From: Patescibacteria group bacterium
GTDB taxonomy: Bacteria; Patescibacteriota; Patescibacteriia; Patescibacteriales; UBA12465
DNA length: 64,000 bases
Direction of reading: 5' to 3'
Assembly: GCA_041651355.1 (NCBI GenBank)
Contig: JBAZJK010000001.1
Coordinates: 229,883-293,882, forward strand
Below are positions 17,313 to 17,512 of the stretch, one piece after another. The first letter of the stretch is position 1. Each line of letters opens with the position of its first letter. Under the pieces are notes generated by a model. It saw only the letters and a program-made list of their open reading frames with translations. It was not told the origin of the DNA and searched no databases. A program made the position numbers and the translations under genes.

Positions 17313-17374
17313 AAACACCTCTGTTTGGAGATGTTTTTATTGAGTCTCGAAATTAGTAATCTTAAAGTTGACGT
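17313..17374 (-). ncRNA. Candidate ~60-nt partner RNA 1: a 5' region complementary to tRNA-like RNA 1, plus a terminator
   Basis: Minus-sense sequence is ACGTCAACTTTAAG-13nt-AGACTCAA-terminator hairpin (stem 17314-17321/17328-17335)-TTTTT. The extended -10 TGtTAATAT (17389-17381) ends 6 nt upstream. The two blocks are perfect complements of nt 20-33 and 34-41 of the tRNA-like RNA. Confidence 0.35.
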
Positions 17375-17380
17375 GCCTTT

Positions 17381-17407
17381 ATATTAACATATTTATCAGG
17401 AAAGTCA
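17381..17407 (-). promoter_or_regulatory. Putative internal promoter for partner RNA 1
   Basis: Minus sense has TTGACT (17407-17402), a 15-nt spacer, then TG-t-TAATAT (17389-17381). The same motif at the same 6-nt distance from the complementary block occurs at the second locus. Confidence 0.35.
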
Positions 17408-17410
17408 ATC

Positions 17411-17477
17411 GTGGACCAGTGGAGAATCGAACTCCAAAGACTCAAACGTCAACTTTAAGGCTTGAACCTTCCTGGCC
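17411..17477 (-). ncRNA. tRNA-like RNA 1 (67 nt, G3:U70 acceptor, A73, canonical T arm, collapsed D region; not a standard tRNA)
   Basis: Minus sense reads GGGCCAG GAAGGTTCAAGCC TTAAA GTTGACG TTTGA GTCTT TGGAG TTCGATT CTCCA CTGGTCC A. All non-Watson-Crick pairs are G-U only in the minus sense. Confidence 0.5.
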
Positions 17478-17485
17478 CAAGCAGT

Positions 17486-17512
17486 TATTATAGCTCGAGC
17501 CCCTTAAAATCA
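17486..17512 (-). promoter_or_regulatory. Putative promoter of tRNA-like RNA 1
   Basis: Minus sense has a perfect TATAAT (17491-17486) 8 nt upstream of G1, and TTGATT (17512-17507) at 15-nt spacing. Confidence 0.4.

Follow-up and report, generated by a model that had tools for sequence, protein, structure and literature searches.

A probable two-gene RNA module of Patescibacteria couples an alanine-tRNA-like RNA to a putative antisense partner

Why should a 67-nucleotide (nt) RNA gene with the acceptor end of an alanine transfer RNA (tRNA-Ala) lie antisense in the gap between nifS and nifU? The question is raised by a 64,000-nt stretch of DNA, hereafter the window, from a Patescibacteria group bacterium (contig JBAZJK010000001.1 of assembly GCA_041651355.1, positions 229,883-293,882). 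The NifS encoded there matches, at 100% identity, a protein from a metagenome-assembled genome labelled 'Patescibacteria group bacterium', and the next named relatives are Candidatus Falkowbacteria. An original prediction had described the element as a possible alanine-accepting minimal tRNA-like RNA. Our comparison indicates that this RNA, which we call RNA1, does not stand alone and is one half of a pair with a second small RNA, RNA2. Judging from comparative sequence data, RNA1 and RNA2 very probably constitute a free-standing two-gene RNA module that is widespread in Patescibacteria (the candidate phyla radiation, CPR) and is present twice in the window.

The nifS-nifU gap is predicted to encode both RNAs on the minus strand (module A), each behind its own putative promoter, P1 or P2, the latter of the sigma70 type. 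The arrangement is given below; L-numbers, here and throughout, are labels of loci or contigs that were compared with the window copies.

16161-17312, plus strand: nifS, encoding a class-V aminotransferase of the NifS type; stop codon at 17310-17312
17549-17983: nifU, encoding a NifU_N protein
17313-17548: nifS-nifU gap, 236 base pairs (bp)
17508-17513, minus strand: P1 -35-like hexamer TTGATT, separated from the -10 box by 15 nt; TTGAT(T) is kept in L083, L086 and L088
17487-17492, minus strand: P1 -10 box TATAAT, 8 nt upstream of the first base (G1) of RNA1; TAYAAT in relatives
17412-17478, minus strand: RNA1 of module A, a tRNA-Ala-like RNA of 67 nt
17403-17408, minus strand: P2 -35 box TTGACT, from a promoter scan; the same hexamer in L083, L084, L086 and L088
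17381-17386, minus strand: P2 -10 box TAATAT with an upstream TG (extended -10) and a 16-nt spacer; TATAAT, TAGAAT or TAATAT in relatives
17303-17374, minus strand: RNA2 of module A, about 72 nt, predicted to be a small antisense RNA, its 5' end placed from P2 and its 3' end from the terminator
17361-17374, minus strand: box 1, ACGUCAACUUUAAG, the first 14 nt of RNA2, a perfect complement of RNA1 nt 20-33 (arm 5' strand plus loop)
17340-17348, minus strand: box 2, GAGACUCAA, in RNA2, complement of the 3' strand of the RNA1 arm, UUGAGUCU
17308-17341, both strands: bidirectional rho-independent terminator hairpin with U-run, its 14-nt arms 93% complementary; conserved in relatives

As originally stated, the gap holds no open reading frame (ORF) of 60 or more amino acids, the only internal ORF of at least 30 amino acids having 41. 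The 67-nt sequence is also where it was said to be, except that its ends had been placed one base off (17477->17411 instead of 17478->17412). RNA1 combines a 7-bp acceptor stem (nt 1-7 with 60-66), carrying a G3:U70-type wobble and a discriminator A (A73), with a T arm (nt 43-59, GGAG/TTCGATT/CTCC) that has G53-C61 and a TPsiC-type loop, and with a D region (nt 8-15) that contains the GG of a D loop. In between lies an anticodon-like arm (nt 16-42, loop GUUGACG), whose 5-bp stem and 7-nt loop extend into an irregular helix of about 10 bp. The acceptor, T arm and extended arm had been described in just these terms, and the TATAAT 8 nt upstream of G1 was found at 17492-17487, with a -10 box conserved upstream in relatives. 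The minus-strand assignment held as well: on this strand the element folds at -22.1 kcal/mol, better than its shuffles (z = -2.1), whereas the plus strand does not (z = -0.6).

The arm has a counterpart downstream. Positions 17446-17459, within the arm, and 17361-17374 form a perfect (100%) inverted repeat of 14 nt, and the window contains the pattern of box 1 at these two places only, against an expectation of 0.04. The repeat starts 6-7 nt past the P2 -10 box, at the putative start of RNA2, and about 70 nt beyond it stands the shared terminator hairpin, which would serve minus-strand RNA2 and plus-strand nifS alike.

Indeed, the two sides of this repeat change together. All contigs with a NifS 81-90% identical to that of the window (L083-L089) carry the element in the same gap, and nearly the whole arm sequence has been replaced lineage by lineage, with the downstream box changing in step in every lineage. 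Four module A alleles (NifS identity 81-100%), each with matching boxes, were thus found; the arms and their matching boxes are as follows.

Window: CTTAAAGTTGACGT
L083: CCAAACTTAACAA
L084 and L086: GATCAAA(G/A)TTGACATTT
L088: CTCGACACCTA

Box 2 also shows matching changes (AAGATTCAA/TTGAATCTT in L086 and AAAGCTCAA/TTGAGCTTT in L083), and is the weaker evidence because L088 matches only in part. Elsewhere among the orthologues there are compensatory changes in the T stem, from GGAG/CUCC to GGGG/CCCC, and at acceptor pair 6:67, from A-U to G-C, while P2 (TTGACT-N16-TAnAAT) and the terminator are kept. The 'anticodon' differs even between close relatives (UGA, UAA, CGA). Conservation in relatives, which the original prediction had looked to, is therefore present in the form of orthologues that occupy the same gap and vary in a compensatory manner.

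A second module was identified in the window by a descriptor scan in which the acceptor sequence was left free. This module B is complete, with the following parts.

42419-42424, minus strand: P1 -10-like hexamer TAGTCT, preceded by TGC, 8 nt upstream of G1
42410->42344, minus strand: RNA1 of module B, 67 nt, acceptor GGGTCCG/CGGATCC, followed by an encoded CCA at 42343-42341
42298-42325, minus strand: P2, with TTTACT, a 16-nt spacer ending in TGC, and TACTAT
42224-42290, minus strand: RNA2 of module B, about 67 nt, with its terminator at 42252-42224

The RNA1 of module B, GGGTCCGGTGGGTTTCGAGACTAGGATCGACACCTAAATCTCCAGGGTTCAACTCCCTGCGGATCCA, keeps G3:U70 and A73 even though its pair 4:69 is U-A, and it does so independently of the search pattern used for the wider family. 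Its RNA2 starts with a box, UCGAUUCUAGUC (42290-42279), that pairs with GACUAGGAUCGA in RNA1 with one G.U, and a UCCAC in RNA2 pairs with GUGGG in the D region of RNA1. When the two sets were cofolded, the free-energy gain (ddG) was -5.5 kcal/mol for RNA1 A with RNA2 A and -7.3 kcal/mol for RNA1 B with RNA2 B, as compared to 0.0 for RNA1 A with RNA2 B and -2.8 for RNA1 B with RNA2 A; in these computed folds the A and B pairs are orthogonal. Module B (42224-42424) lies between genes for an extracytoplasmic function (ECF) sigma factor (41620-42210) and a DUF5667 protein (42521-43291). Two relatives, with sigma factors 93% and 80% identical, have orthologues in this gap (L231, L232), again with covarying boxes, and each of the three module B alleles has matching boxes. 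The module is absent from a relative at 71% sigma-factor identity; L234 lacks it. In the 80% relative, module B is present on the same contig that lacks module A, and a contig with one module and without the other implies that the two differ in age.

To what extent does this architecture recur elsewhere? We sampled the family by scanning public collections with a pattern in which nothing but the acceptor core and the T loop was fixed, which returned at least 119 stretches in Joint Genome Institute (JGI) metagenomes and 18 viral contigs, comprising 122 distinct sequences of mostly 66-70 nt. A covariance model, R1, was built from 12 gapless 69-nt seed sequences of other CPR lineages, with no Falkowbacteria among them, and was used with Infernal for alignment. 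R1 scores the window copies at 49.2 bits (copy A, E = 2.4e-9) and 40.3 bits (copy B, E = 4.5e-7) and the Falkowbacteria orthologues at 47.6-55 bits, while genuine tRNAs in the same 575 kb searched score at most 18 bits. In an alignment of 112 hits, 91.2% of the cells are paired as compared to 65.7% in shuffles (none of 500 shuffles reaches this value), 22 of the 24 pairs change on both sides, and covariation scores 0.549, as opposed to 0.04-0.11 when the partners are slid; the alignment is model-fitted and therefore flatters the structure, yet the slid and shuffled controls are clear. Covariation extends in these hits to every one of the four D-stem and eight arm pairs, and the acceptor and T stems are paired at 99.6% and 99.1%, respectively. 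RNA1 is thus neither a chance fold nor a decayed tRNA.

A typical RNA1 consists, from 5' to 3' and with no gaps between the parts, of the acceptor stem, a D hairpin of 3-4 bp with a UGGU-type loop and an invariant GG, the arm, and the T arm. The arm has 8-10 bp, often with one bulge in its 3' strand, and a loop of 7-9 nt. The earlier statement that the element has no real D arm is therefore true of Falkowbacteria but not of the family, in which a covarying D hairpin is the norm. The arm loop follows a U-R-N-C-A motif (TTGACA 13 times, TTGTCA 7, TTAGCA 5, TTAACA 4, TTACCA 4, and others), and the GC content of RNA1 genes ranges from 49 to 72%. A P1 -10 box matching at least five of six positions lies 3-19 nt from G1 in 34 of 60 members, as compared to 12 of 57 in a control window, and across the family it is mostly 11-12 nt upstream of G1. 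Paralogues also occur, with two different modules on one contig in L128 and L154 and two at one locus in L175. Among the matches listed, the module was found only in the CPR; ten neighbouring proteins were looked up, and the four clusters with taxon names point to Candidatus Uhrbacteria, 'Patescibacteria group' (twice) and 'Parcubacteria group'. An all-against-all BLASTP comparison of flanking ORFs from 46 loci found no conserved protein neighbour, with at most 3 loci per protein family.

The partner gene is similarly recurrent. We searched both strands within 260 nt of RNA1 for partners and compared each member with 12 non-cognate flanks: 62 of 114 members beat all 12, where about 9 would be expected by chance. 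The mean duplex energy was -37.8 kcal/mol for cognate and -19.4 kcal/mol for non-cognate combinations, with the cognate partner ranking first for 42 of 50. At a distance of 41-97 nt past RNA1, 46 loci carry a stretch of 9-19 nt that exactly complements the arm 5' strand and loop, whereas the 60 nt upstream, taken as a control, give mostly 4-6 nt. The recurrent tandem layout reads P1, RNA1, 5-54 nt, TTGACA-N16-18-TATAAT, box, antisense stretch, A-rich tail and terminator. Across 40 tandem loci, P2 matches the -35 consensus at five or more of six positions in 30 and the -10 consensus in 29, with spacers of 16-18 nt, and the first complementary base falls 5-9 nt after the -10 box in 35. The first 11-19 nt of the predicted RNA2 complement the anticodon-like loop and 5' strand of RNA1, the antisense stretch often continues through the RNA1 D region, and the distance to the terminator gives RNA2 a length of about 50-79 nt in tandem loci, and of about 50-80 nt in general.

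Not all pairs are arranged in tandem. The 62 members comprise 44 tandem-downstream, 11 convergent, 5 divergent and 2 upstream layouts, and in the alternative layouts the box still stands directly after a promoter and before a terminator. Because RNA2 occurs upstream, divergent and convergent, it would be an independent gene, and the pairing is not merely the fold of one transcript; a cis fold of a read-through transcript was rejected as the sole mechanism on the same grounds. Beside the exact seeds, non-Watson-Crick positions are G.U in 102 cases and A.C in 63 (46 and 44 in the control), an excess that fits pairing at the RNA level between these strands. The aggregate pattern argues that the pairing is selected and acts in trans, and we consider it somewhat more likely than not that RNA2 sequesters RNA1 as an antisense RNA. 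A 14-nt match beside a full-size tRNA-Ala(CGC) in L143 was rejected as an RNA2. This locus (5560-5740, plus-strand coordinates) holds a 21-nt direct duplicate of the 5' end of the tRNA gene, 101 nt upstream of that gene, which represents either partial duplication of the tRNA or a scar left by integration.

How close is RNA1 to a real alanine tRNA? One module-bearing contig (L203) has, within its rRNA operon, a bona fide tRNA-Ala(UGC), GGGCCGA...TCGGTCCACCA, with the same acceptor core as RNA1, and the tRNA-Ala(CGC) of L143 shares this core (GGGCC../..GGTCC-A). Both window copies carry what appears to be the identity set of alanyl-tRNA synthetase (AlaRS), G3:U70 and A73, together with G2:C71. 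The alanine type assigned to the acceptor in the original prediction is thereby supported, since its core is that of bona fide CPR tRNA-Ala and its identity elements are kept in copy B. RNA1 is a paralogue of tRNA-Ala, 66-70 nt long, with a shrunken D arm and an anticodon arm stretched to 8-10 bp. C74 follows A73 in 35 of 45 loci, and 6 of the 45 encode the complete CCA, against a chance expectation of about 0.7. In addition, a leader of about 5 nt and the trailer can form 3-6 extra pairs, U-1:A73 included, in 27 of 45 loci as compared to 5 of 45 in a shifted control. We read this helix as a feature of the precursor, and the usual distance from the P1 -10 box to G1, 11-12 nt, would place the primary 5' end inside it. 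Processing by RNase P, 3' trimming, CCA addition and recognition by AlaRS are all plausible from these features.

Known classes do not accommodate the element. ARAGORN called only a tRNA-Leu in the window, and neither a tRNA nor a transfer-messenger RNA (tmRNA) at the element; Rfam at its own thresholds reported only RNase P RNA and the same tRNA-Leu, with the element below the RF00005 threshold of 29 bits. The best permissive Rfam hit of the element was tRNA-Sec (16.3 bits, E = 1.3), and the tRNA-Leu, a tRNA-Leu(CAA) at 61517-61600 on the minus strand, is as normal as it had been said to be. No family matching RNA1 was found in Rfam 15, and searches of the literature turned up no account of a tRNA mimic that has an antisense gene dedicated to it. 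The cloverleaf breaks down at the D region, which is 8 unpaired nt in the window copy, whereas the family has a D stem of 3-4 bp with a loop of 4-5 nt and no variable loop. A T-box, or another leader that senses tRNA in cis, does not fit either, there being no Rfam hit, an antisense orientation to the flanking genes, and unrelated contexts elsewhere. On the other hand, the two predicted genes are adjacent and their products base-pair specifically in silico, and both window copies, scored by R1 far above the tRNAs, have their boxes (17361-17374 and 42279-42290) after P2, as expected of a new family.

With canonical tRNA-Ala (RF00005), RNA1 shares the acceptor core GGGCC/GGTCC-A, the T arm, a U-U-G-N-C-A loop and, probably, the maturation enzymes. 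It differs in its length of 66-70 rather than 73-76 nt, in lacking nt 8-9, nt 26 and the variable loop, and in having a D stem of 3-4 bp with a 4-nt loop, or none, beside an arm of 8-10 bp. Copy B gives a sub-threshold hit to mascRNA (31.5 bits, threshold 42.5). Like mascRNA/menRNA (RF01684), RNA1 is small and tRNA-like, has leader-trailer pairing near the acceptor and is predicted to be excised by tRNA enzymes; unlike RNA1, those RNAs are eukaryotic, arise from long non-coding RNA, are not of the alanine type and have no partner, so that the resemblance is one of generic tRNA-likeness. Natural mistranslating or identity-swapped tRNAs are also known, such as Streptomyces tRNAPro variants with non-Pro anticodons and non-Ala tRNAs with G3:U70. 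RNA1 likewise joins the alanine identity set to non-alanine 'anticodons', but those tRNAs are full cloverleaves without an antisense partner, and the loop register and architecture of RNA1 are non-canonical.

RNA-RNA control pairs offer a further comparison, and include the type VIII pair SdsR/RyeA, the antisense antitoxins of type I systems, and the kissing control of plasmid RNA I/RNA II. As in these systems, the module has two adjacent small genes and an antisense RNA whose free end would attack a hairpin loop; its pairing is allele-specific and fast-diversifying, and its copies are orthogonal and patchily distributed. In contrast to them, its partners are encoded in trans with separate promoters, usually on the same strand rather than as cis-antisense genes, and the RNA that would be targeted is a tRNA mimic, not an mRNA or replication primer.

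The nearest described object to RNA1 is a tmRNA reduced to its tRNA-like domain (TLD). Such TLD-only RNAs occur in jakobid mitochondria, some plastids and mycobacteriophage DS6A (PMC11915505, PMC4131195), and a TLD-only molecule strongly inhibits tmRNA (PMC4131195). RNA1 resembles them in its size of about 65-70 nt, its acceptor with G3:U70 and A73, its canonical T arm, its GG D loop and its lack of a tag frame; it differs in that its arm is closed and covarying with a conserved loop, usually accompanied by a D stem, and in that it is multi-copy. Unlike any described form of tmRNA, moreover, it has a dedicated co-evolving antisense RNA gene, and its hosts generally have a standard tmRNA as well. 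Indeed, a standard tmRNA is recorded for 5252 of 6765 Patescibacteria genomes (PMC11915505, supplement). The tmRNA database also has 3 'standard, no CDS' (no coding sequence) entries in Patescibacteria (PMC11915505); these may be members of the RNA1 family.

Is the position between nifS and nifU then of any significance? The original prediction had noted the element there, antisense to the two genes, and the location is incidental. In relatives with a NifS of 72-78% identity the element is absent and nifS and nifU are only 5-19 nt apart, and it occurs in none of the 80 GTDB loci that were retrieved with a NifS profile. Module A is therefore an inserted segment of about 215 bp, confined to a narrow clade, with nothing about it specific to nifS or nifU. 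Neither a target-site duplication nor terminal inverted repeats were found at the insertion site.

Some loci carry additional units. In a relative with 89% NifS identity (L084 3653-3996, L085 1296-1639), one RNA1 is followed by two promoter-box-terminator units; the first box, TTGTTAAGTTTGG, fits the RNA1 allele of L083 and not its own, and the second is cognate. This orphan RNA2 gene suggests cassette replacement between alleles. In L188, where RNA2 is upstream of RNA1, an extra TTGACA/TATAAT promoter, short transcript and terminator lie about 40-110 nt after A73; complementarity of this unit to the L188 RNA1 is not obvious, and it may be another orphan small RNA.

What the module does is a separate question. 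Maturation of RNA1 would be tRNA-like, with cleavage by RNase P, trimming of the 3' end and addition of CCA, and RNA1 would likely be a substrate of AlaRS. The tandem layout has no terminator between RNA1 and RNA2, so that each P1 transcript should also carry the antidote, to which P2 would add more. The unstructured 5' end of RNA2 would dock first on the exposed RNA1 loop, as in other antisense systems, and strand invasion could then open the arm and the D hairpin and undo the tRNA-like L-shape, leaving either a masked 'anticodon' or a long duplex to be degraded, possibly by RNase III. RNA2 would in this way act as a dedicated, allele-specific inhibitor of a tRNA mimic. Were transcription to stop, because the locus is lost or a phage takes over, the tRNA-like RNA, as the stable partner, would be released, and free RNA1 might disturb translation through alanine mis-incorporation, occupation of ribosomes, or titration of AlaRS, EF-Tu or SmpB.

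A toxin-antitoxin-like or immunity-like logic is suggested by the fast divergence of the interface and the presence of several orthogonal pairs in one genome, and likewise by the gain and loss of modules between close relatives, the orphan RNA2 of L084 and the fact that no protein is needed. An RNA-only role of this kind, in addiction or abortive infection, is speculative. The fuller version, in which CPR bacteria carry several orthogonal copies of an RNA-only toxin-antitoxin or abortive-infection-like system, with an alanine-charged mimic that corrupts or blocks translation as the toxin and, as the antitoxin, a short antisense RNA, strongly transcribed, that covers the anticodon-like loop and opens the D and anticodon arms, is in our view rather doubtful. 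For the module as a whole we lean, by a little, towards an antisense-controlled alanine-tRNA mimic that is possibly toxin-antitoxin-like.

Several points weigh against this reading. Toxicity of RNA1 is conjecture, and a housekeeping or regulatory role would fit most of the data equally well. The promoters, both ends of each RNA, aminoacylation and RNA-RNA binding are predicted. The leader-trailer helix would block aminoacylation unless it is removed, and the loop base equivalent to position 37 is a C in the structural register of most members, which is poor for decoding. For about 45% of the pattern hits no partner is detectable within 260 nt. The acceptor stem was fixed by the sampling pattern, which makes the metagenome sample a biased one, and the independent support for family-wide conservation of G3:U70 comes solely from copy B and its orthologues. 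Finally, an energy-only test of the module A partner was not significant (-24.1 against -22.9 kcal/mol); this test is insensitive with AT-rich modules, and the case for pairing in module A therefore rests on the exact 14-mer and on covariation.

Among the other explanations, the likeliest is that RNA1 still decodes, as a compact, alanine-charged tRNA for deliberate or regulated mistranslation or as an extra tRNA-Ala, with RNA2 as an anticodon-masking switch. AlaRS ignores the anticodon, the U-R-N-C-A motif corresponds to a tRNA-Ala(GGC)-type loop with a free middle base, and an arm of 8-10 bp would equal in length the stack of anticodon stem and D stem in a normal tRNA. A minority of members even have canonical C-U-NNN-A-A loops (GUC, GAU, GAG) and pass as marginal tRNAs by ARAGORN or Rfam, L151 reaching 53.7 bits. 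Most members, however, have the unfavourable C in place of base 37 and lack linker nt 8-9, nt 26 and the variable loop, and variation of the 'anticodon' among close relatives fits selection for pairing with RNA2 rather than for decoding; we regard a decoding role as unlikely. Much of the same acceptor evidence would suit a non-translational alanine donor, for a cell wall or lipid transferase, or a sensor of alanine charging, the free level of which RNA2 would set. The alanine acceptor and CCA ends, the tRNA-like processing signals and a loop that seems unsuited to decoding all agree with such a role. Yet no transferase gene linked to the module was found among the neighbouring ORFs of 46 loci, and multiple fast-diverging orthogonal pairs with gain and loss are hard to reconcile with metabolic housekeeping, which leaves it very unlikely.

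A tmRNA without its coding sequence, working with or titrating SmpB in ribosome rescue, as has been proposed for jakobid mitochondria and mycobacteriophage DS6A, while RNA2 tunes its level, would account for the G3:U70/A73 acceptor, the T arm and the GG D loop (stemless in Falkowbacteria), and could draw on the 3 'standard, no CDS' Patescibacteria entries (PMC11915505) and on the inhibition of tmRNA by a TLD-only molecule (PMC4131195). The sub-threshold tmRNA hit of copy B, moreover, spans both ends of the model (30.3 bits, threshold 47). That hit is matched by none for module A, even at E <= 10, no tmRNA is called by ARAGORN, and no hit reaches the thresholds of the Rfam models (RF00023, RF04321, RF02544). 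The region that in tmRNA is an open helix 2 with pseudoknots and tag ORF, or that in mini forms leaves little beyond the TLD, is in RNA1 a closed, covarying hairpin of 8-10 bp with a conserved 7-nt U-R-N-C-A loop, and a D stem is present in most members. The likeness to tmRNA helix P2 seen in the original prediction does not survive this comparison. Two copies in 64 kb, paralogues on other contigs, the standard tmRNA of most Patescibacteria, and the lack, on inspection, of any tag ORF shared between RNA2 alleles all make this explanation quite unlikely. RNA1 shows no shared frame or tag either, and no smpB was seen among the module neighbours. A split tmRNA was rejected as well: short frames in RNA2 end just after box 2 in four alleles and encode unrelated peptides, and other lineages have only 15-30 A-rich nt between the antisense part and the terminator.

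Two readings dispense with a minus-strand RNA pair altogether, and both are highly improbable. The element could be a plus-strand leader or attenuator of the nifS-nifU mRNA that controls nifU, since it lies within an operon-like gene pair and a long-range stem of 14 bp is possible in the plus-sense RNA. Its poor plus-strand fold and the lack of conserved neighbours led us to reject such a nifU leader; in addition, its G.U pairs would become A.C, its homologues stand in unrelated contexts and in every orientation, its promoters and the polarity of its terminator point to the minus strand, and relatives without the module have nifS directly beside nifU. Alternatively, a decaying tRNA-Ala pseudogene, an integration scar or a repeat resembling a miniature inverted-repeat transposable element, with the inverted repeat as a DNA relic, might explain the variable presence between close relatives, the duplicated RNA2 unit of L084 and the partial tRNA-Ala duplication in L143. 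Such a relic would not be expected to show compensatory covariation in all helices over more than 100 sequences at 49-72% GC, boxes that co-evolve with RNA1 even from the opposite strand or from upstream, or conserved, near-consensus promoters and terminators, and the insertion has neither of the end structures sought at it.

If an antisense-controlled alanine-tRNA mimic is indeed what these loci encode, they represent a previously unrecognised class of bacterial non-coding RNA genes, in which a mimic of tRNA-Ala is tied to a co-evolving antisense RNA. Each module costs about 250 bp, and several specific copies are kept in some of the smallest known genomes. Standard annotation overlooks them, with ARAGORN and Rfam either missing RNA1 or labelling it a marginal tRNA or a CDS-less tmRNA. 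The module would raise questions about the re-use of tRNA identity outside decoding, about RNA-only toxin-antitoxin or immunity systems, and about translation control and defence in uncultivated episymbionts. Orthogonal RNA1-RNA2 pairs could also furnish a natural set of programmable RNA-RNA switches, and the module should be accessible with synthetic RNAs and heterologous expression, without culture of CPR bacteria.

The scan also returned related genes of other kinds. Ten loci, mostly from IMG/VR (L097, L121, L139, L213, L215, L193, L227, L216, L222, L225), have tRNA-like genes of 67-70 nt with a GGGCC..GGTCCA acceptor, in which the D arm, TAGCTCAGTGG, is normal and the anticodon region is shortened, and which lack a partner RNA; these are a different, phage-associated class. 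Another six (L100, L101, L144, L184, L185, L210) have a CCCACC-type loop (for example, GGGCTACCCACCTCA), mostly with no detectable RNA2 nearby, and may form a distinct subfamily. Compact tRNA-Ala-like genes were also seen within tRNA arrays, in L133 (15-1855) beside 8 tRNAs and a tmRNA with the tag ANDNSVAAPLQAAA, and in L157, where the whole locus has more than 20 tRNAs; both arrays probably come from phage or another non-CPR source.

Within the window, both modules lie antisense between co-oriented genes (nifS and nifU; the ECF sigma factor and DUF5667 genes) that are adjacent in relatives without the module, and each puts a bidirectional terminator (17308-17341; 42224-42252) at the stop codon of the upstream gene. 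Insertion of a module should therefore uncouple the downstream gene from the promoter of its operon; for nifU, we saw no plus-strand promoter that is conserved. A gene for a protein of the CCA-adding enzyme/poly(A) polymerase family with an HD domain (13589-15049, plus strand) lies two genes upstream of nifS and is syntenic in relatives. Its link to the module is probably coincidental, though most RNA1 genes encode no CCA. The same window also encodes the tRNA-processing ribozyme that RNA1 would need, a class A RNase P RNA at 56006-56341 on the plus strand (223.7 bits).

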